Origin: Candidatus Dormiibacterota bacterium | GTDB lineage: Bacteria > Chloroflexota > Dormibacteria > Aeolococcales > Aeolococcaceae | Length of the DNA stretch: 64,000 nucleotides | Direction: 5' to 3' | NCBI GenBank assembly: GCA_963743835.1 | Contig: CAVUQX010000005.1 | Location: 347,959 to 411,958 of the forward strand | In this document: positions 4,715 to 59,584 of the stretch, piece after piece | Layout: each line of letters opens with the position of its first letter | Position numbering within the stretch: position 1 is the stretch's first letter | Notes under the pieces: model-generated | Databases searched by the model: none | Seen by the model: the letters and a program-made list of their open reading frames with translations, nothing else | What the model was told of the DNA's origin: nothing | Made by a program: the position numbers and the translations under genes

Positions 4715-5794
4715 CTAGGCCGCCCGCTTCAGCCAGCGCTCGGGATGCCGGAGCTCGTCGAGGGTGGGCATCATCTCCGCGGACTCCCAGACTCGATTCA
4801 GCGCGCTGAGCCCGGCGCGATCAACGACGCCGACCGCGAAGTGCTCGCCGACCTCGTACTGGCGCATCTTCATCTCCAGGCCGGTGATGGTGAGCACCAG
4901 CCGCTCGATCGGCCTTCGCTGATGGCGGCGCTGCTGCATGGCCGCCTCGAGCCGGTCGGAGCCGCGAATCGCCTCGCGGCCGGCGCGATGCATGACGAAG
5001 TTGCTGTACCCCTCGAGAACGCTCATCACGGCCTGCACGTGGCGGATCGTCTGCACCTGATTTCGCACCGTGTCGGGCAGCCGGCGAACCATCTGGCTCG
5101 AGGGAAGGAGTGTCTGGCCGTCAGCCGAGAGCGCGTCGAGCATCAATCCGCGCATCACGCTCTCGAGATGCTCGCCGAGCCACGGATGGACCTCGAACTG
5201 CCAGGCATGGGTCAGCTCGTGGAGGATCAGCCAGGGCCGCAGGTCGGTACCGCTGAGATGCAGGTCGCGCTCGATCCCGGCGATGTTGGGCTCGACGAGG
5301 TAGAGGGCGCTCGCCTGACGGGTGTCTCCCGGGACCTCCTCCAGCGCGAGAACCGGGTCGTACTGGCCGAGGACCCGGCGTGCCATCAAGCCGAACAGCT
5401 CGCCGACGTAGCGGTCGAGCACGCGCCGGCTCATGCCGGTCGCCAGCGATTCGGGGACGCTCGCCCGGATGCGCTCGACGGGGGCGAGCAGCCGCTGCAC
5501 CATGCCGAGGTTGGCGTCGATGAAGCCCTTCCGATCGAGGGCGACGAATCGCGGATACGCGGTCAGCGGTACCTGGCAGACCTCGACCAGCAGGGGCGCG
5601 ACCTGCGCCGCCATCTCGGTATAGGCCGCCTCGAGCGCCTCCGCGTTGATACCGGCAGCGCTCCGGAGCTCGCCGCTGCGCGACACGGCGATGCGGCGCA
5701 CGTCATCCCAGTCGACCAGGCGGCGCGGCGTCTGCAGCTGGGGGCGGAGCAGGGCTCGCGCCGACAGCACCGCGCCCGCGCCGACGGCTCCCAC
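4715..5794 (-). CDS. zinc-dependent metalloprotease (DUF2342/F420-associated family)
   Basis: HEXXH motif HELTHAWQ; length and layout typical of the actinobacterial 'zinc-dependent metalloprotease' family. Confidence 0.6.
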   Translation of the reverse strand: MGAVGAGAVLSARALLRPQLQTPRRLVDWDDVRRIAVSRSGELRSAAGINAEALEAAYTEMAAQVAPLLVEVCQVPLTAYPRFVALDRKGFIDANLGMVQRLLAPVERIRASVPESLATGMSRRVLDRYVGELFGLMARRVLGQYDPVLALEEVPGDTRQASALYLVEPNIAGIERDLHLSGTDLRPWLILHELTHAWQFEVHPWLGEHLESVMRGLMLDALSADGQTLLPSSQMVRRLPDTVRNQVQTIRHVQAVMSVLEGYSNFVMHRAGREAIRGSDRLEAAMQQRRHQRRPIERLVLTITGLEMKMRQYEVGEHFAVGVVDRAGLSALNRVWESAEMMPTLDELRHPERWLKRAA

Positions 5795-5878
5795 GGCGAG
5801 CGTGCGGCGGATCTTGTCGCTTCGACTGGCAGGAACTCATGGATCGATCATACGGGGGGACCGCCCGCCGATCGGAAT

Positions 5879-6727
5879 CTACATCGACGACCCCGACCGC
5901 CCGTCGATGTAGACCGGGTGCTCGGGGGGCTTGCCCTCGAGCCAGTAGGCGTCGAGGCGCTCGTCGGTCCAGCCCCGCTCGCGGAGGAACGGCTCGTCGA
6001 GGATCTGCTGTCCGGTGAGCGCCGGCGGTTGGGTGGTGACGATCTCCATCATGGCGTCGCAGAGGATCTCCGGCGATCGCCACTGGCTGCGGTCTCCGAG
6101 GCCCCAGTTGATGCTCGCCAGGCTTTCGATGATGGTCACGGGCCAGAGCGAGTTGCTCGCGATCCCGTCATCAGCGTGCTCGGCTGCGATCCCGATCGCC
6201 AGCCGGGTCATCCCCATCTTGGTGGTCATGTAGGCGACGTGCCCAGGGCTCGGCGTGGTCGTGATCGGCGGCGAGCAGGTGATGACGTGGCCCCAGTGAT
6301 TCGTCACCATGTGCGGCAGCGCGTAGTACGCGCAGAGAAATGCCGCGCGAACGTTGATCTCCCACATCAGGTCGTAGCGCTTCGGCGGGGTGTCCAGGAC
6401 CGGCTGCCACCAGAGCGCGCCCGCGTTGTTGATGAGGATGTCAAGTCGGCCGAAGCGCTCGACGGTGGCATCGACCATCGCTTTGACCTCATCCTCGTGG
6501 CGCACGTCCACCCGTACGGCGAGCGCGGACCCGCCGGCTGCCTCGACCTCTGCCGCGACCGTGTGGATGCTCCCGGGAAGCTTGTCGGTACCGCTCTCCG
6601 ACTTGCCCGTGACGACCACCGACGCGCCCTCGCGAGCGAGGCGCAGCACCATGGCACGCCCGATTCCCCGGCTGGATCCTGTGACCACCGCCACGCGGCC
6701 GTCAAGCGGACGATGTGGCGCGCTCAT
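5879..6727 (-). CDS. SDR-family oxidoreductase (HSDL2-like)
   Basis: VAVVTGSSRGIGRA NAD(P)-binding motif, NNAG, and YxxxK region (HVAYMTTK). Confidence 0.75.
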   Translation of the reverse strand: MSAPHRPLDGRVAVVTGSSRGIGRAMVLRLAREGASVVVTGKSESGTDKLPGSIHTVAAEVEAAGGSALAVRVDVRHEDEVKAMVDATVERFGRLDILINNAGALWWQPVLDTPPKRYDLMWEINVRAAFLCAYYALPHMVTNHWGHVITCSPPITTTPSPGHVAYMTTKMGMTRLAIGIAAEHADDGIASNSLWPVTIIESLASINWGLGDRSQWRSPEILCDAMMEIVTTQPPALTGQQILDEPFLRERGWTDERLDAYWLEGKPPEHPVYIDGRSGSSM

Positions 6728-6775
6728 CGGCGCGCATCATAGGCGCCGCCGCGGTAACCGCACCTCGATCGCGGA

Positions 6776-7470
6776 TCAGGCGACGCGAGCGGCGATCTCC
6801 TTGACGAGGTTCGCGAGCTCGTCGGTGAGCGGTCCCGGCAGGCGGCGCTGGAGTATCTCGAGCACGCTCGTGTAGTACCAGAGCTGGGCGTGGGGATCAG
6901 TCACGGTGAATCGCTGCCACACGGCGTCGCCGTCGGTGCGGAGGTCGGTCACGATGGACCGCGCGTTGTGGACCTTGTCGCAGGCGGAGACGAGCAGGAC
7001 ATCGCTGTCGGCCTCGACGGCGAGTCGCCGCAGATACGTTTCCTTCCGCTCCCGCCATTCCGGCTTCGGCTTCCCGGGTATCGCGACGGCATCGCTGCAG
7101 GCCATGACGATCCGCGCGACCCGGTCCCCGAACTGCTCGTCGATCACCTGGTGGGTCGCCTCGCCGTCCTCCGAATCCTCCACCGCGTCGTGGAGCAGTG
7201 CGGCGATGGCCAGGTCCTCATCGGCGCCGTTCTCCAGGGCCAGCGCGCAGACCGTCATGACGTGAGCCATGTACGGGACGCCGGTTTTCTTGCGCATCTG
7301 CGTCCCGTGGACCGCCCAGGCCAGTGCGAACGCCGCGGCGAACCGACCGGTCAGCGGTGGCGCGGTCTGGGTCCGCTCGGGCACCAGCACATTGTGGGCA
7401 ATGCTCGCCTGCGAACGAAGCACGGCGGGCATGGGAGCCAGAATGGCGCGGTGCGCTTCTCTCTCGGCCA
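6776..7470 (-). CDS. HD-domain phosphohydrolase (RelA/SpoT-hydrolase-like)
   Basis: H..HD motif (AALLHDAVEDS), HGTQMRK; start chosen at MAEREAH because the longer ORF upstream is R/D-rich low-complexity. Confidence 0.65.
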
Positions 7471-7531
7471 TCGACTGCCCGGCGGATTCTGGGGAGGCGT
7501 CTCCACCTACACGCGCCGGCCCCAACATGCG

Positions 7532-7984
7532 GTGCGTCAAGCTGTCCGCGCGACGGGCGCTATCGGCTGCGTGGGCTTCATCGTCCTGCTCGCCGTCCTC
7601 GCGCTCAGCATCACCTACTGGTACATCAGTGTCCCGGTGCTGGGGCTGACGGCCGTCGCGGTCGGCATCACCGTGCATCGCCAGCACGTCAACCGCGCGC
7701 CGGGATCGGTGGTTGCTCCTTTCCCGGCAATGGGTCCGGTCGCGACCACGAGGCCGGTCATCGCCGCACCCCCAGCGCCGGCGCCCGCGCAGTCGCCACC
7801 CCGCGACCCGCGTATCGCGAGCACCCCGCCTTTGACCATGCCCGCCGACACGTTCAAGGTCGGCTCGCTGGTCCACCTCGAGAAGAACGGGAGGCGCGCC
7901 ACGTACTTCGTCGATCACGGACGGACGCCGGACGAGATCGTGCTCAAGCGCGTTTCCGGCACGCCGCCGGCCCCTGATGCCTGA
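7532..7984 (+). CDS. small membrane protein (2 predicted TM helices plus a C-terminal ~45-aa beta-rich domain); first gene of the putative defence module
   Basis: GTG start 61 nt from the divergent HD gene; hydrophobic stretches IGCVGFIVLLAVLALSITYWYI and VLGLTAVAVGITV; C-terminal FKVGSLVHLEKNGRRATYFVDHGRTPDEIVLKRV. Its stop overlaps the ATG of the downstream ATPase by 8 nt. Confidence 0.5.
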   Translation: MRQAVRATGAIGCVGFIVLLAVLALSITYWYISVPVLGLTAVAVGITVHRQHVNRAPGSVVAPFPAMGPVATTRPVIAAPPAPAPAQSPPRDPRIASTPPLTMPADTFKVGSLVHLEKNGRRATYFVDHGRTPDEIVLKRVSGTPPAPDA

Positions 7985-10406
7985 CGCCGCTCTGCTCGGC
8001 CTGGTGGTCGATCGGATCGAGACCCATGCCCCGGCCGACGGTGCGGCGGACCTGATCCTGGCGGCATTTCAGGGGCCGGGTGCTGTCGATGCCGCACTTC
8101 GCGGCGAGGCCTCTGGGGCGCTGACGCCGGTCGCGCAGAGCGTCGCAGCGCCTGCGGCGGTGTACCTCGCCGCGATCGAGGTGGAAGGCTTCCGTGGCAT
8201 CGGCCCGCCAACCACCCTGCACATCGATCCCGGACCCGGCCTCACCCTCGTGGTCGGACGGAACGGCTCGGGGAAGTCGTCGTTCTCGGAAGCGCTCGAG
8301 ATGGTCCTGCTCGGCAGCAATCAGCGTTGGGAGCAGCGCGTCAAGGTCTGGCGTGACGGATGGCAGAACCTCCATCACCGCCATTCGCGGGTGGCGGCGC
8401 AGTTCGCCGTCGACGGACGCCGGCAGCCGCTCCATGTCGGCCGTGTCTGGAAGGATGGCGATGGTGTCGACGGCTCGACATTGATCGTCGATGGCAAGCC
8501 GGCATCAGCGGCCTCCCTCGGATGGGCGCCGCAACTGGCGGGGTATCCGCCGCTGCTCTCGCACAACGAGCTTGAGCACGCGCTCGATCGCGAGCAGTCG
8601 AAGTTATACGACGCACTCGCCGGCATCCTCGGGCTCGGTGATCTCGCCGCTGCGCAGCAGGTGCTGCAGCGGGCTCGGCTGAGCCGGGAGCACGATGCCA
8701 AGGAAGCTCGCGACGCGCTCCCCGCGCTGCGGGGACTCCTCGACCGAACCTCCGACGAACGTGCGGCGGTGGTTCGCGTCGCCCTGTCATCGAAGACGTG
8801 GGACCTCGACGTTGTCGCGAGCACGGTCGGCGGTGAAGCGCAGAGCGGCGAGCGCAGCGTGTTGCGCAAGCTTCGCGACCTCGCGGGTCTGCCGGTGCTC
8901 GACCGTGAGCGGCTCAACGCCGTGACCACCGAGCTGCGTGAGGCTCATGCTGCGACCGACCGACTGCGCGGTACCGACGCGGGAAGGGCGCACGAGGTGG
9001 CATCGCTGCTCCAGCAGGCGCTCGACGTGCACGCACACGCCGAGGGTGAACGCTGCCCGGTGTGTGGCACTGAGGGTGTGTTGACGTACCAGTGGCGCGT
9101 CCAGGCGCGCGACGAGGTGCTGCGGCTTCGAGCGGATGCGGAGGCGGTGCGCAAAGCGCGTGACATGCTGGGTGACGCGATACGCCAGGCTCGGCAGCTG
9201 GTCACCGCACCGCTCAAAACGCTCCGCGACAGTGCTGGCGCGGGCGTCGACGTTGCGCCGGTGATCGCCCTCTGGGAGCGATGGGCCGACGTTGCTGCCG
9301 ATGATGACGCAATCGCACTGGCCGGCCATCTCGAGACACAAGGCGCGCCGCTCATCGCAGCAGTGGCGGATCTGCGCCGGGCAGCATCGGCGGAGCTCGA
9401 GCGATTGGAGCGAGCCTGGCGACCGGCGGCGGAAGCGATCGCCCTCTGGCTGCCCCTGGGACGGAGGACGCTGGAGGCCGACCGCGAGGCCGGCCGCCTC
9501 CGGGAGGCGGAACGCTGGCTCAAGGATGCGCACGACGAGCTGCGTGATGAGCGGTTCCGTCCGATCGCGGGAGCTGTGCAGGAGAACTGGACCGCACTCC
9601 GTCAGGACAGCAACGTGTCGCTCGGCGATCTGCGCCTGCTCGGCGCGTCGAATCAGCGGCGGCTTGCGCTCGATGTCAAGGTCGACGGCGAGGACGGCTC
9701 GGCGCTTGGCGTCATGAGCCAGGGGGAGCTGAACTGCCTCGCGCTGTCGCTCTTCCTGCCGCGTGCCTCGATGCCGGAGTTGCCCTTTCGTTTTGTCGTG
9801 ATTGACGACCCGGTGCAGGCAATGGATCCTGCCAAGGTTGCGGGGCTCGCCACGGTGCTCGCGCGCGCTGCGAGAGACCGCCAGGTCATCGTGCTCACGC
9901 ACGACACGCGTCTTGCGGACGCCATGAGCGCGCTGGACATCAACGCCACGGTGATCGAGGTGGTGCGGCGCGAGCAGTCGATCGTGGAGCTGCGACGCAT
10001 TCAGGACCCGGTGCAGCGGTATATCGAAGATGCCTTTGCGGTCGCGATGAGCAGGGACGTGCCGGAGGAGGCGCTGCGCGTGATCCCAGGCTTCTGCAGG
10101 CTCGCGCTCGAAGCCGCCGCGTCACTCGCTGCGACGAGGCGACTGCTCCACCATGGCAGGACGTATGCGGACGTCCAGGATGTGCTTGCGCAGCCGACCA
10201 CGCTCAACATGTGGCTCGCGCTGGCGTTGCTGAACGATCCCGAGCGCAGCGGTGACGTCGCAGGGTTCCTGCAGAAGCAGTACCCCTGGGCGGTCGAGGC
10301 CGTCAGGGAATGCAACCGCGGAACGCACAGCGGCAAGCTGTTCGGCGACGCGAAGGAGTTCATTCGCAGCATCGAGCAGCTGACGAAGAGGATCCTCGAC
10401 CGTTGA
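7977..10406 (+). CDS. RloC/PrrC-like ABC ATPase with coiled-coil zinc hook and C-terminal HEPN-like domain (candidate anticodon nuclease / abortive-infection protein)
   Basis: Walker A GRNGSGKSS at ~aa 95; long helical insert with CPVCG (CxxC) at ~aa 360; ABC signature/Walker B/D-loop/H-loop SQGELNCLALSLF...FVVIDDPVQAMD...VLTHD at ~aa 590-640; ~170-aa helical C-terminal tail with Rx6H (VRECNRGTH). Confidence 0.6.
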   Translation: MPDAALLGLVVDRIETHAPADGAADLILAAFQGPGAVDAALRGEASGALTPVAQSVAAPAAVYLAAIEVEGFRGIGPPTTLHIDPGPGLTLVVGRNGSGKSSFSEALEMVLLGSNQRWEQRVKVWRDGWQNLHHRHSRVAAQFAVDGRRQPLHVGRVWKDGDGVDGSTLIVDGKPASAASLGWAPQLAGYPPLLSHNELEHALDREQSKLYDALAGILGLGDLAAAQQVLQRARLSREHDAKEARDALPALRGLLDRTSDERAAVVRVALSSKTWDLDVVASTVGGEAQSGERSVLRKLRDLAGLPVLDRERLNAVTTELREAHAATDRLRGTDAGRAHEVASLLQQALDVHAHAEGERCPVCGTEGVLTYQWRVQARDEVLRLRADAEAVRKARDMLGDAIRQARQLVTAPLKTLRDSAGAGVDVAPVIALWERWADVAADDDAIALAGHLETQGAPLIAAVADLRRAASAELERLERAWRPAAEAIALWLPLGRRTLEADREAGRLREAERWLKDAHDELRDERFRPIAGAVQENWTALRQDSNVSLGDLRLLGASNQRRLALDVKVDGEDGSALGVMSQGELNCLALSLFLPRASMPELPFRFVVIDDPVQAMDPAKVAGLATVLARAARDRQVIVLTHDTRLADAMSALDINATVIEVVRREQSIVELRRIQDPVQRYIEDAFAVAMSRDVPEEALRVIPGFCRLALEAAASLAATRRLLHHGRTYADVQDVLAQPTTLNMWLALALLNDPERSGDVAGFLQKQYPWAVEAVRECNRGTHSGKLFGDAKEFIRSIEQLTKRILDR

Positions 10407-10413
10407 GGTCGGC

Positions 10414-10803
10414 ATGACCACGAGGGTTGATGCGCACGCGCTGGTTTCGGCCGCACGCGACCTCATTCGCGACGACGACGCGGCGACGGCAGGCCTCTGG
10501 CCGCGAGCAGCCGCGTTGCTTGCCCGGCAGGGGCTGGAGCTCGCGATGGAGCGGCTCTGGGAGGTGACGGCCCCTGGCCTGGAGCGAACCTCAACGCGAT
10601 GTCAGCTGCTCTGTGTCGGCGATATGCTCAACGATCGCGAGCTCGGCGGCCGCGCGACGCTGACCTGGCGATCGCTCTCCAACGCGTGCCACCACCGCGT
10701 CTATGAGTTGCCACCGACCGCGAGCGAGCTCAACCTGGCGCTCGAGACCGTGTGGGACCTTGCCGAGTCGGTTGAGCGGCTGCGAGGGAAGATCCAGGGC
10801 TGA
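10414..10803 (+). CDS. standalone HEPN-like protein, paralogous to the C-terminal domain of the upstream ATPase
   Basis: GAGG RBS 6 nt upstream and an 8-nt gap after the ATPase stop; Rx6H motif (WRSLSNACHH); shared LND motif and similar spacing to the ATPase tail (LLCVGDMLNDRELGGRA vs LALALLNDPERSGDVA). Confidence 0.5.
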   Translation: MTTRVDAHALVSAARDLIRDDDAATAGLWPRAAALLARQGLELAMERLWEVTAPGLERTSTRCQLLCVGDMLNDRELGGRATLTWRSLSNACHHRVYELPPTASELNLALETVWDLAESVERLRGKIQG

Positions 10804-10814
10804 GCGCGTGGTTC

Positions 10815-10982
10815 TCAGGTCTTCGGAGCGTCGTTGCGCTGCTCGCCTGAACGCTCGAGGAGTTGTCGCAGGGCAGGAAGCACCACCCGGTCCTTCTCCC
10901 GATTGGCTGCCTCCTTTGCCTGCTCGTCGCGCAAGCGCAGGTCGAATCGCTCGCCATTCTGACCGCGGATCCGGTGTTTCAT
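10815..10982 (-). CDS. possible small ribbon-helix-helix-like protein (convergent with the HEPN gene)
   Basis: MKHRIRGQNGERFDLRLRDEQAKEAANREKDRVVLPALRQLLE resembles a CopG/RHH beta-strand plus helix; short, no further support. Confidence 0.25.
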   Translation of the reverse strand: MKHRIRGQNGERFDLRLRDEQAKEAANREKDRVVLPALRQLLERSGEQRNDAPKT

Positions 10983-11176
10983 CGCTACGACGTCGAGGTC
11001 GTCCCGGCCGGCTGACGTGCCGCCCTGCGAGCTGCGACTGGCACGTGTCGCAAACGCATGCCTCGTTGACAACGCTGCGGCAGCAGTCTCAGCACCCTCA
11101 CAGGGCGCACTGATGAACCTCAAATCACCCGCTGTCACTCTCTAACTTAGCCACCTAAGTAACGAGGAACCCGACC

Positions 11177-11938
11177 ATGGACGACCACAACCCAACCTGC
11201 CCACAAGAGTCCGCACCCGCTCGGGTTCGGCGTTACCTGACCCGCAAAACACGTCGAGGGATCATTGCGTTGACGTTGACGGGTGCCGCGGTGGTACTTG
11301 CCGCCTGCGGCACGGCTGCGGCGACAACCACTCCCTCGTCGGCGGCCGCGGGCAGCAACTCCCCGGCCGGCCCTTTCTCCGGCGGCGGAGGTTCGAACGC
11401 TCGGTCTGGACCGGCCGCAGGCGGATCATCCGGGACCGTCAGTGGCGTATCGGCGTCGAGCTTCACCGTTTCGACCGCAGCGGGTCAGAAGGTGACCGTT
11501 GACGAGGCGTCGTCGACCACCTATGAGAAGAACTCGGCCGCGACGTCGGCAAGTGCCATCACGACGGGAGAAGCGGTCCTGGTCCTGGGGACCACCAGTG
11601 GAACGACCATCGCCGCCACGGAGGTCGTTGTGCAATCGAGTGGCAGTTCAGCGGCTGCCTCTGCGGCTGCACGCGTCGTGCCGTTCCAGCAAGGGGCTGC
11701 CACCACGTCAAAGCAACTCGGTCAAATCCCTGCGGACTACAGCCAGGGGTCGGGGACGATCGTCAGCGGGACGACCGCATACAAGGCGACTGAAGCCGCG
11801 CTTGCGGCGTACCCCGGAGGCATCGTTGACCGTGTCGTGCAGCTGAGCAACGGCGAGTTCGAGGTGCATTACATCGGCGTCAACTGGCCGCATCACGTCT
11901 TCGTCAGCCAGGACTTCACGGTCGTCGGAGCCAACTAG
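11177..11938 (+). CDS. lipoprotein with repeated beta-rich (DUF5666-like) segments
   Basis: Signal peptide plus lipobox (LTGAAVVLAAC), Ser/Thr/Gly-rich linker, repeated G-T-V-S motifs; AT-richer upstream region. Confidence 0.6.
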   Translation: MDDHNPTCPQESAPARVRRYLTRKTRRGIIALTLTGAAVVLAACGTAAATTTPSSAAAGSNSPAGPFSGGGGSNARSGPAAGGSSGTVSGVSASSFTVSTAAGQKVTVDEASSTTYEKNSAATSASAITTGEAVLVLGTTSGTTIAATEVVVQSSGSSAAASAAARVVPFQQGAATTSKQLGQIPADYSQGSGTIVSGTTAYKATEAALAAYPGGIVDRVVQLSNGEFEVHYIGVNWPHHVFVSQDFTVVGAN

Positions 11939-12083: not shown

Positions 12084-13298
12084 TCAGGGTGGCGGCTCGA
12101 CCACGGCAACGCCATCAGCGATATGGATGCGCCAGCCCTGCTCGTGCACTCGGCGGTGGTGGGTCCGGCACAACGAGACCAGATTCCCCAGCTCGGTGGG
12201 ACCGTCCGGCCAGTGGATGATGTGGTGCCCATCCGTCCACGCCGGCGGTCGATCGCACCCGGGAAACCGACAGCCCTGATCGCGCAGGTTGAGCGCGGTG
12301 CGGAGGTGGGCCGGGATGGTGCGCGTCTCCCGTCCGACCGCGAGCGGCAGGACCGGTGGGCGGCTGCCGGTCCACGCCGAACCACCCGCAGCCGGCGGCG
12401 CAACGGCCACCACCGTGAGCGCCGCATCACAGGCGATGCGCCGCGCGGTCTCGGGATGGATCGGTCCCACCCCGCGCAGCTCGGCCGGCCAGCCATCGGC
12501 GTCACCCCGGAGCGTGGCCGCGCTCACCGTGAGGGTGAGATGGGGGCGCTGGCCGTGGACATCGCGGTGGTCCCCGCAGCGCAGCTGGGTGGCGGCCAGC
12601 TCGACGAGCGCGTCGGCACGGCGCTGCGAGCCGGTTCGGGTCTCGTCATGGGTCATTCCCTGACTGAGCGCGTCGATGGCGGTCTTCACCAGCGCGCCCC
12701 CTTCGGCGTCGAGCTCCCCGCGAAGGACGAAGACCCCGCCATAGGTCTGCTCGCACTCGAACCAGCGCCGCTCATGGGCGCGGTTGTCGTCGGCGAGCAC
12801 CCCATCGGGATCGATCCGGAGCCGCGCCACCTGGGTGACGGTGCGCATGTCGCCGGGGTCGAGCGTCTCCGCCGCGCCCACCAGGATGTGCTCCAGCAGC
12901 GCCACCTGCGCCACGCCGACATCATTGGCGAGCTGGGCGATCATGGTCACGTTGCTCAGGGAGGCGCGCCCGGCACGGGCGCTGTCGAGCGTGGCCGGGA
13001 GCTCGCCGAGGGTGCGCGCCAGCCGGACGCGGGACGCGCCCGCCTTCCAGGTCACGGCGCAGTGATCGCGCACCCAGGAGGTGGTGCTGCCCGCCCCATC
13101 GGCCAGCGCGCCGTGGGCGCGATCGAAGCGGTCCAGGCGACGGAGGAACTCGGCCTCGAGGCGATCGGCAGCCCGCCGGATGGCGACCAGGTCGTCGCCC
13201 AGCGCCTGTGTGGAGAAGCCGTCGATGGACTCGCCGACGAGTGCATCGATTGCCTCCGTCAGCCGCTGTCGGGCATCCGGTATGGCGAACGCTTCCAT
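12084..13298 (-). CDS. DUF222 / HNH endonuclease-signature protein (mycobacterial 13E12-repeat family)
   Basis: C-terminal HNH motif GCRFPGCDRP...DGHHIIHWPDGPTELGNLVSLCRTHHRRVHE with an N-terminal DUF222-like helical region; start at MEAFAIPD. Confidence 0.8.
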   Translation of the reverse strand: MEAFAIPDARQRLTEAIDALVGESIDGFSTQALGDDLVAIRRAADRLEAEFLRRLDRFDRAHGALADGAGSTTSWVRDHCAVTWKAGASRVRLARTLGELPATLDSARAGRASLSNVTMIAQLANDVGVAQVALLEHILVGAAETLDPGDMRTVTQVARLRIDPDGVLADDNRAHERRWFECEQTYGGVFVLRGELDAEGGALVKTAIDALSQGMTHDETRTGSQRRADALVELAATQLRCGDHRDVHGQRPHLTLTVSAATLRGDADGWPAELRGVGPIHPETARRIACDAALTVVAVAPPAAGGSAWTGSRPPVLPLAVGRETRTIPAHLRTALNLRDQGCRFPGCDRPPAWTDGHHIIHWPDGPTELGNLVSLCRTHHRRVHEQGWRIHIADGVAVVEPPP

Positions 13299-13505
13299 AC
13301 AGAATATTATACCAAACACCTGTTCGCCACCGCACGGACAATGCGGTGCACTTGACTGGTTACAGCCATAGCTGGCAGTAACCGTTCGAGATCTCCGCGA
13401 CGACCGAGGTCCAACGTCCGGATCCGTTGGCGGGTGCCAACTCGACGAAACCCGGCAACGCCAGGGCCCCTCGACGCATGACGCAGTCAACCCCAGTCTG
13501 AGGGT

Positions 13506-14321
13506 CTATCTGTCGGGTCGATCCACGATCGGTACGAAGATCGCCTCGCGATGGTAGTCAAAGTTCATGAGGTCCAAATGATGCTGGCGCGCCATCAACA
13601 ACTGCTGCCCTTCCGTCGCTCGGTCGCCCGTAACGGACAGGCTTTCGGGCATGATCGTGATCGCCCCGAAATCGAACAGCACATGGTCATTCGGGCAAAG
13701 ACACAGGACGTTGTTCATTGCGTCCTTCCCGTTGTGAGGGCGTCCGAGTGGCCGAATGTGGGCGGCCTCAGCATACGGGGCTATCGGGGTGGGCAAGGAG
13801 ATCCGGCAGATTTGGCACGTGTAGTCATACATGCGCTTGACCTCCCGAGTGACGGCAGTGTCCCGAACGATCCGCTGAATCGTTTGGGCGACGCGCTCGG
13901 GGCGTCCCGGCTCGTCGCGTAGCACCAAGACCGCCGACGCGGGGACCTTGCGCAGTTCGTAGCGCCATCGAATGAAACCGTCGCTCGTATGGCGATCGCG
14001 GAAGTAGCTGTCCACCACGTAAACACCGTCATATCGGAAGCTCCGACCAACCTTACGAATGACCCGGACGGGCACGCCGAAATTACGGCTGCGAATCAGG
14101 CCCGCGTTTCCGAGGATCGGTTTCTGGTCGGCAACCGCTCTGGACGTTCCAGGGTCGAGGCCTCCCTGGCCGGTATAGATGACTACGTCCCCTTGATCGT
14201 CATCCGGATAGACACCGGACAAGACGACCGACGCCGCCGGCTGTCCCGCGGCGAAATCTATGCCAGCTTGGAGAGGCCGATGGATGCCGGCGTCTCGGAG
14301 CCCTCGGCGGCTCGGGAACAT
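13506..14321 (-). CDS. SRA(YDG)-HNH methylation-dependent (type IV) restriction endonuclease
   Basis: SRA-domain motifs GVYPDDDQGDVVIYTGQGG and FRYDGVYVV; C-terminal HNH HIRPLGRPHNGKDAMNNVLCLCPNDH; GC ~53-55% against ~70-75% flanking. Confidence 0.75.
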   Translation of the reverse strand: MFPSRRGLRDAGIHRPLQAGIDFAAGQPAASVVLSGVYPDDDQGDVVIYTGQGGLDPGTSRAVADQKPILGNAGLIRSRNFGVPVRVIRKVGRSFRYDGVYVVDSYFRDRHTSDGFIRWRYELRKVPASAVLVLRDEPGRPERVAQTIQRIVRDTAVTREVKRMYDYTCQICRISLPTPIAPYAEAAHIRPLGRPHNGKDAMNNVLCLCPNDHVLFDFGAITIMPESLSVTGDRATEGQQLLMARQHHLDLMNFDYHREAIFVPIVDRPDR

Positions 14322-14451
14322 TGAGCCGACGGGCACCTCAGGCACTTCTCCGTACCTGATAACGGATGGCGTCACGGTGACCTGATGGTACGTGTCCCGC
14401 CGGCCTCCAATCAGAACTAGACATGGGAGGCACTCGGGCCCGCCCAGGCTC

Positions 14452-14501
14452 TTAGCACTCGCGGCCCCCACCCGCTAGCAGTCAGACCCCCCGAGTGCTA
14501 A
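14452..14501 (+). promoter_or_regulatory. CIRCE-like HrcA operator(s) upstream of groEL, atypical arrangement
   Basis: Perfect half-sites TTAGCACTC (14452-14460) and GAGTGCTAA (14493-14501) are separated by 32 nt rather than 9. The internal degenerate halves (aCCcGCTAg, cTAGCAgTC) could make two overlapping N9 CIRCEs. Confidence 0.55.
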
Positions 14502-14546: not shown

Positions 14547-16158
14547 ATGGCCAAGCAATTGCTGTTCGACGTCGAGGCCCGCGCCCATCTCAAACGAGGG
14601 GTTGATCGGGTAGCTGACGCCGTGAAGATCACCATCGGCCCCAAGGGCCGGAACGTCGTGCTGGACAAGAAGTTCGGCTCGCCGACCATCACCAACGACG
14701 GAGTCACGATCGCCAAGGAGATCGAGCTCGAGGAGCCCTTCGAGAACATGGGCGCCCAGCTGGTCAAGGAAGTGGCGAGCAAGACCAACGACATCGCTGG
14801 TGACGGGACCACCACCGCCACCGTCCTCGCCCAGGCGCTCATCGCGGCCGGGTTGCAGAACGTCGCTGCCGGCGCCAACCCGATCCAGCTCAAGAAGGGC
14901 ATCGAGCTCGGCGTTGAGGCGATCGTCAAGGCGATCAAGGAGCAGTCGATCCCGATCTCCGAGCGCGAGAAGATCGCCCAGGTCGCGTCGATCTCCGCTG
15001 CTGACCCCACCATCGGCGAGACCGTCGCCGACGCGATGGAGAAGGTCGGCAAGGACGGCGTCATCACCGTCGAGGAGTCGAAGGGCCTCGAGACCGAGCT
15101 CGAGCTCGTCGAGGGCATGCAGTTCGACAAGGGCTACATCTCCGCGTACATGGTCACCAATGCCCAGCGCATGGAGGCCGTGCTCGAGGATCCCTACATC
15201 CTCATCACCGACAAGAAGATCTCGGCGATCGCGGACCTGCTCCCGATCCTCGAGAAGGTCGTCCAGAGTGGCAAGCCGCTGCTGGTGATCGCCGAGGACG
15301 TCGAGGGAGAGGCGCTGGCCACCCTCATCGTCAACAAGCTGCGCGGCACCTTCAACGCCGTCGCGGTCAAGGCGCCGGGGTTCGGTGATCGTCGCAAGGC
15401 GATGCTCCAGGACATCGCGATCCTGACCGGCGGCCAGGTGATCAGCGAGGAGGTCGGCCTCAAGCTCGACTCCGCGCAACTCAGCTCGCTGGGCCGCGCC
15501 CGCAGCGTGACCATCACCAAGGACGACACCACGATCGTCGAGGGCAACGGCAGCAAGGACGCGATCAAGGGCCGGATCGAGCAGATCAAGGCCGAGATCG
15601 AGAAGTCCACCAGCGACTGGGACAAGGAGAAGCTCCAGGAGCGCCTCGCCAAGCTCAGCGGTGGCGTTGCGGTGATCAAGGTCGGCGCGGCGACCGAGAC
15701 CGAGCTCAAGGAGAAGAAGCACCGCATGGAGGACGCCGTGTCCGCCACGCGCGCCGCAGTCGAGGAGGGCATCGTGCCCGGTGGTGGAGTGGTGCTCGTC
15801 AACGCGATCCCCGCGCTCGACAAGGTGAAGGTCGAGGGCGACGTGCTCACCGGCGTGAACATCCTCCGCCGTGCGCTCGAGGAGCCCCTTCGTCAGATCG
15901 CGCAGAACGCCGGGATGGAAGGCTCCGTGGTCGTTGACAAGGTCAAGTCCCTGCCCAAGGGTCAGGGCTTTCGACGCCGCCAAGGGCGAATACGTGGACA
16001 TGGTCAAGGCCGGGATCATCGACCCGACCAAGGTGACCCGATCGGCGGTTCAGAACGCGGCATCGATCGCCGCGCTGCTGCTCACCACCGAGGCGCTGAT
16101 CACCGACATCCCCGAGAAGAAGGGAGCACCGGCCGGTCCGCCGATGCCGGAGTACTGA
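14547..16158 (+). CDS. groEL: chaperonin GroEL (60 kDa), with an apparent +1 frameshift (extra T near 15969-15971)
   Basis: Canonical GroEL from [12 protein letters not shown] to ...[11 protein letters not shown]; the C-terminus ([45 protein letters not shown]...) continues in frame +1 (ORF 15871..16158). Confidence 0.9.
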
Positions 16159-16183
16159 TCGGCAACTGATCCGATTCCTTGGA

Positions 16184-26535: not shown

Positions 26536-26612
26536 TGGTACCCCGTATCGGATTCGAACCGATGGTCTCCGCCTTGAGAGGGCGGTGTCCTGGGCCACTA
26601 GACGAACGGGGC
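26536..26612 (-). tRNA. tRNA-Glu (anticodon CUC)
   Basis: Manually folded cloverleaf: acceptor GCCCCGT/ACGGGGT, anticodon stem CCGCC/GGCGG with loop CTCTCAA, T-arm ATCGG-TTCGAAT-CCGAT, encoded CCA. Confidence 0.85.
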
Positions 26613-59512: not shown

Positions 59513-59584
59513 GCCCGCATCGTCTAGCGGTCAGGACACCACCCTTTCAAGGTGGTAACCGGGGTTCAACTCCCCGTGCGGGTA
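59513..59584 (+). tRNA. tRNA-Glu (anticodon UUC)
   Basis: Manually folded: acceptor GCCCGCA/TGCGGGT, D-arm GTCT-AGCGGTCA-GGAC, anticodon stem CCACC/GGTGG with loop CTTTCAA, T-arm CGGGG-TTCAACT-CCCCG; CCA not encoded. Confidence 0.8.

Follow-up and report, generated by a model that had tools for sequence, protein, structure and literature searches.

PrrC and RloC, fusions of an ABC ATPase with a HEPN domain, and the SMC-like sensors of Lamassu represent two established couplings of DNA sensing to bacterial suicide. In RloC, a zinc hook and a DNA-dependent ATPase gate the fused HEPN nuclease, and mutation of the Arg-X3-Glu-X36–52-His triad that characterizes RloC and PrrC abolishes RloC activity. 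The RloC of G. kaustophilus comprises 804 aa, with K44, C291, D572 and R692/E696/H737 as its reference residues. In Lamassu (LmuACB or DdmABC; ABC-3C), the zinc-hook protein LmuB senses DNA ends and thereby frees the effector LmuA, which must oligomerize and carries a C-terminal oligomerization domain, and the third gene encodes the middle component LmuC, known in types MC1–MC8. Further ABC-HEPN fusions, such as APECO1_4465 and ERFG_01251, have been described from E. coli and from Neisseria/Kingella-type hosts (Anantharaman et al., 2013).

The locus analyzed here, which lies in a window of 64,000 nucleotides, combines elements of these systems in two adjacent genes (Table 1). The first encodes an ABC ATPase head split by a long coiled coil with a zinc hook, followed by a C-terminal HEPN-fold domain, and the second a stand-alone HEPN protein. 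Judged on their sequences, the two genes form a distinct and as yet unnamed ABC-HEPN plus HEPN module, with an RloC-like layout and a Lamassu-like sensor. The fusion protein resembles APECO1_4465 and ERFG_01251 in joining an ABC ATPase to a C-terminal HEPN domain and in its mobile or defence contexts, but the comparison is by description only, and no paired free HEPN is mentioned for those proteins (Anantharaman et al., 2013).

Table 1. Positions in the window of the two-gene module, its motifs and the upstream reading frame.
Feature	Position	Strand	Basis
Upstream ORF of 177 aa, hydrophobic over a long stretch (by eye), its last 8 nt inside the ATPase gene	7451..7984	+	frame-2 GC3 signal
Gene for the ABC ATPase, coiled-coil/zinc-hook and HEPN fusion, 809 aa	7977..10406	+	translation, coding frame, Pfam, homologues
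N-terminal extension before the ATPase head, aa 1–62	7977..8162	+	conserved in alignment of homologues
Walker A/P-loop GRNGSGKSS, aa 94–102	8256..8282	+	G, K and S residues 72/72
Helical coiled-coil insert between the ATPase head halves, about aa 200–545	8574..9611	+	LmuB and Rad50 matches, motif spacing
Zinc hook CPVCG, aa 360–364	9054..9068	+	C360, V362, C363 72/72; P361 71/72
ABC signature motif MSQGE, aa 580–584	9714..9728	+	72/72
Walker B/D-loop FVVIDDP, aa 606–612	9792..9812	+	D610, D611, P612 72/72
H-loop THD, aa 641–643	9897..9905	+	H642, D643 72/72
C-terminal HEPN-fold domain, aa 678–809	10008..10403	+	
R708-x3-E712 in helix 2 of the fused HEPN, directly preceded by C707	10098..10112	+	conservation
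R777-to-H784 stretch (Rx6H segment of VRECNRGTH, aa 776–784)	10305..10328	+	conservation
Junction: TGA stop, overlapping GAGG ribosome-binding site, 7-nt gap, ATG	10404..10413	+	sequence
Gene for the stand-alone HEPN partner protein, 129 aa	10414..10803	+	

The ATPase head and its zinc hook

The reading frame of the fusion protein is backed by third-position GC, and its translation holds every motif named in the initial annotation. Database searches retrieve more than 1400 homologues, and the protein matches the Pfam families SMC_N, AAA_21 and AAA_23. Its closest homologues, at 88–96% identity, are proteins from Dormibacterota metagenome-assembled genomes, and the organism is therefore assigned to Candidatus Dormibacterota rather than to the Actinomycetota, as first proposed. 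The N-terminal extension holds no known domain in a Pfam scan. The view that the ABC head is split by a long hook-bearing insert held up well: the head and hook motifs, including the signature region MSQGELNCLALSLF (aa 580–593), were followed through 72 full-length homologues, which come from several phyla. The CPVC hook falls about 260 aa past Walker A and about 217 aa ahead of the signature motif, a spacing that places it at the apex of the insert. An NCBIfam Rad50 match covers aa 308–366, and the Pfam Rad50_zn_hook match at the hook is weak and non-significant (E 0.3).

Among described defence ATPases, the best matches of the ATPase are Lamassu LmuB and mad3. The PADLOC LmuB model (PDLC03859) matches over head and coiled coil with E-values of 1.2e-20 to 6e-23, its alignment spanning aa 248–651. 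For three members of the family, the 25 highest-ranking PADLOC hits are headed by LmuB and mad3 and include no PrrC or RloC model. The Pfam family AAA_13, which includes PrrC and RloC, scores 29.2 bits on the 809-aa protein against a cut-off of 36, and aligns to the ATPase head only. By these profile comparisons, the ATPase resembles LmuB more than it resembles RloC; LmuB is likewise SMC/Rad50-like and bears a zinc hook, and its coiled coil is similarly long.

The fused and stand-alone HEPN modules

The C-terminal tail had been described as all-helical, and the AlphaFold model bears this out, with helices running from aa 678 to 808. In the predicted structure, these helices form the four-helix up-down bundle with an insert between helices 2 and 3 that defines the HEPN fold; the structure models made use of the sequences of database matches. 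The expected relationship to known HEPN or anticodon-nuclease families did not emerge at the sequence level, since hmmsearch against Pfam, PADLOC, PHROGs and PDB returned no significant match for this domain or for the small downstream protein, PADLOC remaining empty at E-values up to 10 when the C-terminal domain was used alone. A Foldseek search with the C-terminal model likewise gave no significant PDB match (best E 0.23). Structurally, both HEPN modules of the locus come closest to the minimal HEPN proteins of HEPN-MNT toxin-antitoxin pairs (AF0298, TT1696, SO_3166/HepT), which share their size, helix order and a His at the junction of helices 3 and 4, but which are paired with an MNT nucleotidyltransferase and carry an Rx4H Arg, whereas the modules studied here lack both and are paired with an SMC-like ATPase instead.

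An alignment of the fused domain from 80 species identifies R708 and E712 as invariant (80/80 each), preceded by the almost equally conserved C707 (79/80). The Rx6H hallmark on which the HEPN assignment originally relied stands in its second half, with H784 present in 74 of the 80 sequences and absent from the fused domain in 6 loci, and G782 and N780 in 70 and 61, respectively. Its first residue is less constant: position 777 is R in 32 and K in 28, so that a basic residue occurs in 60 of 80. In the AlphaFold model, H784 sits at the canonical HEPN motif site and E712 on the long second helix, where the conserved acidic residue of HEPN domains is expected. In both HEPN modules, conserved cysteines adjoin the motif residues.

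The small downstream protein presents a similar picture. H93 is its sole residue conserved in 77/77 sequences, E42 is found in 76 of them and, in the structure model, falls within the long second helix, and R31 and R38 are nearly invariant. The canonical HEPN Arg, 4–6 residues before the His, is absent, and position 90, separated from the motif His by two residues (x2), is R in 34/77 and N in the copy of the window. The Glu-His spacer amounts to 50 residues in this protein. Fused and free modules align colinearly in a profile-profile comparison, with their motifs in register (E 2.5e-4), and a second such comparison is weak (E 0.021, probability 2%); the small protein is probably a paralogue of the fused domain. 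In a Pfam search of 38 members at E-values up to 5, no family matched significantly, HEPN and DUF4145 appearing once each (1/38, at E 0.079 and 0.18).

Linkage of the two genes is the rule. They adjoin in 76 of 80 loci, in the Dormibacterota, Actinomycetota, Acidobacteriota, Gemmatimonadota, Chloroflexota and other phyla, which indicates that the small gene is not incidental, and in distant loci the start codon of the partner mostly overlaps the ATPase stop by 4 nt. Pairwise distances of the two proteins are correlated (r 0.76–0.93). Taken with the gene junctions, these data characterize the small HEPN protein as an obligate partner whose gene is translationally coupled to that of the ATPase. 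The ATPase frame stops ahead of the small gene in 76/76 loci, and apparent in-frame ATPase-HEPN-HEPN fusions, seen in an HMM search of stop-to-stop ORFs, were rejected as overlapping-frame artefacts of high-GC DNA.

The similarity to Lamassu extends to the presence of a small single-domain protein alongside a zinc-hook ATPase, as with LmuC, and LmuB models, aligned through the coiled coil, rank first or second in the PADLOC searches. The locus nevertheless is very improbable as a compact Lamassu (ABC-3C) system. It comprises two genes instead of three, and no conserved gene for a separate LmuA adjoins them; the effector-type domain, a HEPN, is fused to the ATPase, an arrangement not described in the Lamassu literature drawn on here. 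Furthermore, the small protein adopts a HEPN fold and, since it matches no Pfam family, matches none of the ABC-3C middle-component families, provided that Pfam includes these.

The layout proposed at the outset, that of RloC, is upheld in the order of its parts: a single chain of about 800 aa, as in G. kaustophilus, in which a full ABC head, interrupted by a coiled coil bearing a CxxC hook, precedes a helical HEPN-type domain at the C-terminus. Both the fused and the free HEPN also display an Arg-x3-Glu followed by a His, as in PrrC/RloC, and in the fused domain the His has a small residue ahead of it. Membership in the RloC/PrrC family does not follow from this likeness, and it is very doubtful that the protein is a divergent but true RloC orthologue, a wobble-nucleotide-excising tRNA anticodon nuclease next to which the small gene would be incidental. 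Against such orthology stand the sub-threshold, head-only AAA_13 score and the PADLOC results given above, a spacer of 71 residues between E712 and H784 instead of the 36–52 of RloC and PrrC, the 62-aa N-terminal extension and the downstream free HEPN gene, which RloC lacks. Moreover, the actinobacterial RloC proteins listed in 2008 differ from the present family in length and host. The separation from RloC is drawn from the published description of RloC and from the Pfam and PADLOC profiles.

The coupling of a candidate toxin to a small downstream gene also recalls toxin-antitoxin arrangements. ABC heads dimerize upon ATP binding, and ATP-dimerized heads would juxtapose both C-termini of the fusion protein. 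It is accordingly conceivable, if unlikely, that the small HEPN acts as a non-catalytic, antitoxin-like inhibitor that masks the dimerization surface of the fused HEPN, which would stay inactive until the ATPase drives the small protein off, and equally unlikely that the active enzyme is a homodimer of fused HEPN domains joined by ATP-engaged heads. The lack of the canonical Arg in the small protein, and the Asn of the window copy at position 90, fit an inactive cap. The universal H93 and the near-invariant E42, R31 and R38 are hard to explain for a mere cap, however, and in one subclade the His is gone from the fused domain but kept in the small protein.

Genomic context and distribution

The initial annotation placed two extra small genes next to the fusion gene. 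The downstream one, the second HEPN, belongs to the unit. The upstream 177-aa ORF, whose junction with the ATPase gene reads ATGCCTGA, matches no Pfam family in a Pfam scan and was dismissed as a third component, since its conservation is confined to 24 syntenic Dormibacterota loci; it is probably a lineage-specific neighbour outside the unit. No third conserved gene was found in distant loci, where up- and downstream neighbours vary between phyla. The neighbourhood in the window consists of an oppositely oriented HD_4 gene, the hydrophobic ORF, the HEPN gene and a DUF5666 gene. Neither paralogues elsewhere in the window nor, in a scan of positions 7200–11300, promoters or terminators were found.

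The family is present in at least 563 of 185,579 species representatives, patchily spread over many phyla, and the fused domain falls into 919 clusters at 50% identity and the partner into 1625 clusters at 90%. Its members are currently annotated as ‘AAA family ATPase’ and ‘hypothetical protein’; PADLOC 2.0, NCBIfam and PHROGs contain no family model, nor does Pfam for either HEPN module. Across phyla, the flanking genes include GmrSD, an integrase, helicases, NB-ARC/TPR proteins, WYL regulators and toxin-antitoxin pairs. Streptomyces plasmids, such as pM92 (WP_272591550/WP_272591551), also carry the pair, and it occurs in two copies in some genomes. In about 25 Dormibacterota species, the pair is found at a single, constant position on the chromosome, and its divergence keeps step with that of the adjacent housekeeping genes, which is unusual for defence genes and counts against a role in defence. 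The lack of homologues in viral contigs, scanned with two peptide patterns, counts against it as well.

This stability in the Dormibacterota would suit an SMC/Rad50-like genome-maintenance or stress complex devoid of nuclease activity, in which the HEPN folds would be non-catalytic modules binding ligands, RNA or proteins. Many HEPN domains are indeed non-catalytic, among them those found at the C-termini of nucleotidyltransferases and in part of the MtlR family. Likewise, the Rx4–6H motif is incomplete in both modules, the conserved cysteines beside the motif residues could form a metal site, and the only GO term that PGAP attaches to the family is ‘double-strand break repair’, a generic one. 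Even so, such a complex is improbable, and it is similarly improbable that the small protein is an accessory subunit comparable to a kleisin or to LmuC-type proteins. Maintenance functions sit poorly with the patchy spread, with plasmid-borne and multiple copies and with the location of the pair in defence islands. No SbcD/Mre11-type phosphoesterase partner, which the initial annotation had listed, together with best hits to SbcC/RecN-type repair proteins, as evidence that would speak against its reading, was found among the window neighbours. Lastly, His and Glu are kept at the catalytic positions of both modules.

A putative DNA-sensing RNase switch

The reading favoured here, considered somewhat more likely than not, is that of a two-gene cassette, a Rad50/LmuB-type hook ATPase-HEPN with a coupled free HEPN, that would serve as a DNA-sensing RNase switch in defence. 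Its anatomy, folds, residue conservation, gene linkage and distribution are observed; DNA sensing, heteromer formation, RNase activity and the role in defence are drawn from the analogy with RloC and Lamassu. In the proposed switch, the first gene provides an ABC head split by an antiparallel coiled coil of about 340 residues with a CPVC tip, and a divergent C-terminal HEPN. Acting as a dimer, the ATPase and hook would sense abnormal DNA, for instance DNA ends or replicating DNA of foreign origin, and ATP-driven engagement of the heads would alter the pairing of the HEPN modules. HEPN RNases need two HEPN domains per active cleft, and the C-terminal and free HEPN most likely pair together. An active RNase, either completed or set free once DNA is sensed, would then cut tRNA or other RNA, stop translation and abort the infection. 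The retention of H93 in all small proteins (77/77) while 6 loci have lost H784 from the fused domain was counted in favour of this switch. The intact ATPase and hook motifs, the LmuB-type sensor, the R-x3-E…H pattern, the gene linkage, the colinear alignment of the two modules, the varied genomic contexts and the RloC precedent speak for it as well; the incomplete canonical Arg, the Foldseek result and the second profile-profile comparison speak against it.

A more specific version, that of an immune or domesticated stress module, can be put forward only tentatively. In this version, the Lamassu/Rad50-type ATPase would hold the free HEPN through a fused half- or pseudo-HEPN, and DNA ends would either complete a heteromeric RNase site or release a self-pairing HEPN; the conserved Cys and His residues might form a zinc site between subunits, and the system would be a stable chromosomal resident of the Dormibacterota.

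The module represents a new combination of a Lamassu-like zinc-hook sensor with two HEPN modules, one fused to it and the other free but obligate, in a sizeable family that extends over at least six phyla, Streptomyces plasmids included, and yet is unnamed. If the proposed switch is correct, it would offer, on the one hand, a simple two-protein model of an SMC-type machine gating an RNase and, on the other hand, a model for two unequal HEPN domains sharing one active site, and it would add a candidate defence system for poorly covered soil phyla.

Translation and boundaries of the two-gene unit

Translation of the ATPase gene yields a stop-free frame that agrees with GC content at all three codon positions, bearing out the initial annotation as regards the ORF and its motifs (GRNGSGKSS, CPVCG, SQGELNCLALSLF, FVVIDDP and VRECNRGTH). 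The Walker A G/K/S, MSQGE, the Walker B DDP, the H-loop His and the C/V/C of C-P-V-C are each present in 72/72 full-length homologues from several phyla; the motif observation is real and well past chance. Pfam matches the head alone (SMC_N, AAA_21, AAA_23 and AAA_15, with AAA_13 under its cut-off) and has no match for aa 655–809, and a PDB sequence search with the ATPase returns SMC and Rad50 heads and nothing else. Databases hold more than 1400 relatives, and the closest are Candidatus Dormibacterota MAG proteins (88–96% identity), which assigns the window to that phylum and not to the Actinomycetota, the host first proposed. Directly after the P-loop helix lies a strongly conserved motif, RW…VWxDGWxNLHH (W125, W129, N131, L132 and H133 invariant or almost so), which is confined to the ATPase-HEPN family and could contact DNA or a ligand.

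With each species represented by a single genome, scanning found a relative in at least 563 species, and the best 80 loci were retained for comparison. The gene for a small, stand-alone HEPN protein lies immediately 3' of the ATPase gene in 76 of these 80; in locus L055 the small gene is instead upstream and runs in the opposite direction, and the ATPase frame there has a longest ORF of 996 aa from a putative start. The three loci without a homologue all end at or near a contig edge. Most distant loci have a 4-nt overlap of stop and start; in the window, 7 nt separate the two genes and a GAGG overlaps the ATPase stop codon. Pairwise distances for the small protein correlate with those for each part of the ATPase (r 0.76–0.93), and the two genes therefore travel together. 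Two extra small genes had been proposed beside the ATPase, and only the downstream one has held. The upstream ORF was ruled out as a third component: its homologues among the 80 loci are restricted to 24 from Dormibacterota, which also have the flanking HD_4, SDR and Zincin_2 genes in common. Since neighbours in other phyla are mutually unrelated (among them GmrSD, permeases, beta-lactamase, integrase, helicases, a UvrA-like protein, peptidases), the unit comprises two genes, not three.

Coordinates of the features discussed, in window numbering
Feature	Position	Strand	Remarks
Zincin_2/SDR/HD_4 genes	4715-7400		upstream flank of the pair
HD_4 gene	6776-7400	-	RelA/SpoT-type hydrolase domain
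Upstream ORF	7451-7984	+	long hydrophobic stretch; 8-nt overlap with ATPase start
ATPase gene	7977-10406	+	809 aa
RW…VWxDGWxNLHH motif	8325-8381		aa 117-135 of ATPase
C707 codon	10095-10097		fused HEPN
C779 codon	10311-10313		fused HEPN
Small HEPN gene	10414-10803	+	129-aa ORF; homologue in 77/80 loci
C67 codon	10612-10614		small protein
C92-H93 codons	10687-10692		small protein
DUF222 + HNH endonuclease gene	12084-13490	-	
SAD/SRA + HNH_2 gene	13506-14471	-	321 aa
groEL	14547-16169		
tRNA-Glu	26536-26612	-	
tRNA-Glu	59513-59584	+	

Fused and free HEPN modules

The HEPN domain fused to the ATPase (aa 678–809) is recognized by neither Pfam (30 members), PADLOC (E up to 10), PHROGs nor PDB hmmsearch. 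In the structure model, H784 lies directly past helix 770–781, with R708 and E712 both part of the long helix 2; a survey of HEPN proteins places the catalytic His and a conserved acidic residue at exactly the positions matching H784 and the R708/E712 helix. R708, E712 and G727 are conserved in 80/80 species, followed by C707 (79), H784 (74), G782 (70) and N780 (61). The Rx6H read in the tail is thus correctly placed, but its Arg, R777, is only a 75% R/K position (R in 32 and K in 28 of 80), and R-x3-E…H is the stronger signature; its Glu and His are 71 residues apart, and the His follows directly on a small residue (A, T or S). A profile of the domain retrieved 919 proteins (E ≤ 0.001) from 1.84 billion cluster representatives; among the best 150, complete-looking proteins are mostly ~805–830 aa, a few reaching up to 1000 aa, with the domain C-terminal, and shorter entries look like fragments. 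At a Vicinamibacterales locus (L083, 7468–10372), the gene call divides the ATPase into 750 aa and a further 106-aa piece that precedes the small HEPN gene; a frameshift would explain this, or else the fused HEPN is naturally split there.

In the small protein, no residue but H93 is retained in all 77 sequences, and R31 (76/77), R38 (73/77), E42 (76/77), Q64, C67, W85, C92 and Y97 are near-invariant; conservation is lacking at the canonical Arg position, and R90 occurs in 34/77 (N in the window copy). The resulting pattern, R38-x3-E42 followed after 50 residues by H93, is again R-x3-E…H. When profiles of the two modules, each built from 80 species, are aligned with one another, the match is colinear across 104 columns (E 2.5e-4, probability 43%) and brings both R-x3-E and both His motifs into register; shallower alignments gave a weak match (E 0.021). 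The small protein is read as a probable paralogue of the fused HEPN. Its family comprises 1625 clusters at 90% identity, and the members listed are ~120–145 aa long, are called 'hypothetical protein' wherever a name is given and have no Pfam family.

Since each active site of a HEPN RNase is built from two domains, the fused and free modules would most likely pair with each other. H784 is lost in six loci that retain the small-protein His, namely an Acidobacteriota subclade (L039, L049, L061, L063 and L080) and L055. Less probably, the small protein would be an inhibitor; the universality of its His, and the absence of a fused-domain His from one subclade, favour a small subunit that takes part in catalysis. 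One His-less domain reads FRRCEEGSE in place of CNRGxH, beside a small protein that still has CHH. Cysteines also adjoin key motif residues in both modules (C707; C779, 58/80; C67 and C92, 74/77 each), and may form a site for metal binding or redox chemistry, to which both subunits might contribute.

Genomic setting and distribution

Housekeeping genes surround the pair in the window, with PEPCK, Zincin_2, SDR and HD_4 upstream and, downstream, DUF5666, DUF222-HNH and SRA-HNH genes before groEL. Some 25 Dormibacterota species (loci L001–L034) carry it at this same site, between Zincin_2/SDR/HD_4 and groEL, with a divergence similar to that of its neighbours, indicating that the clade inherits it vertically, as defence cassettes seldom are. 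This settled inheritance speaks for a less likely rival reading, a repair or maintenance complex without catalysis; the conservation of His and Glu at the catalytic positions of both modules speaks against it.

The stretch between the pair and groEL varies in length and content among Dormibacterota. The SAD/SRA-HNH_2 protein combines domains typical of type IV restriction nucleases, which are directed at methylated DNA, and its gene, lacking a counterpart in the 80 related loci, is a recent arrival in the window genome. The DUF222-HNH gene has relatives in eight of the related loci, all from Dormibacterota; most of these hits fall downstream of the small HEPN gene and short of groEL, at differing distances, a pattern that marks a variable spot adjoining groEL. 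The HD_4 gene, divergent and upstream of the pair, is kept beside it in Dormibacterota only, and its stop-to-stop ORF (380 aa) is far longer than its conserved part. Both tRNA-Glu genes in the window (anticodons CTC and TTC) are far from the pair, and no tRNA gene adjoins it there.

Elsewhere, the pair occurs on Streptomyces plasmids, one of them conjugative and another typed as non-mobilizable, next to NB-ARC/TPR, DUF6119 and UvrD-like genes, and it adjoins GmrSD on Streptomyces chromosomes. The Vicinamibacterales contig places it within a clear defence island, whose surrounding 20 kb are dense in defence and toxin-antitoxin genes (HNH, Schlafen-type helicase, PIN toxin-antitoxin, WYL regulator, RNase H-helicase). 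Some genomes carry two copies, and a scan of viral contigs with two peptide patterns did not find the pair. Taken together, these settings point to a cassette that moves horizontally and has become vertically inherited within a single phylum.

Relation to RloC and Lamassu

The best PADLOC models for the window ATPase and two distant members are Lamassu LmuB (E 1e-20 to 6e-23, aligned through the coiled coil) and mad3, followed by PDC-S06, HEC-01A, AriA, GajA and PtuA heads. The PrrC/RloC triad has been defined as Arg-X3-Glu-X36–52-His, often with Ser preceding the His, and all three residues are essential in RloC. RloC also sets the example of a fused HEPN nuclease under the control of a zinc hook and a DNA-dependent ATPase: hook mutations turn the nuclease on, and DNA and ATP hydrolysis are required. 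That the pair is a true RloC orthologue is an unlikely reading, favoured by the R-x3-E…H pattern and the fused HEPN; however, the spacer is 71 residues here, AAA_13 stays under its cut-off, and no PrrC/RloC model is among the best 25 PADLOC matches of the three members, so that the family membership first proposed is not sustained. Less likely still, the pair would be a compact Lamassu. In Lamassu, LmuB senses DNA ends through a Rad50-like build with a zinc hook and acts alongside LmuC, a small protein, and a distinct effector, which is released and must oligomerise; an LmuB-type sensor and a small partner are present here, but a separate LmuA is missing. The pair thus departs from each system in a defining trait: from RloC in sequence-family membership, as judged from profile models, and from Lamassu in the missing LmuA.

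By analogy, the pair may nevertheless work like both. A dimeric, hook-linked ATPase would sense abnormal DNA, and ATP-driven head movement would alter the pairing of HEPN modules, either completing a heteromeric site or, as in Lamassu, freeing the small HEPN to pair with itself; the outcome would be RNA cleavage (of tRNA, by analogy) and growth arrest. RefSeq names the two products 'AAA family ATPase' and 'hypothetical protein', and a literature search found no published account of an ABC-HEPN protein with an obligate free HEPN. The fused, gated HEPN of RloC and the LmuB sensor of Lamassu with its small partner are already known; what appears new is an ABC-HEPN protein paired with an obligate free HEPN.
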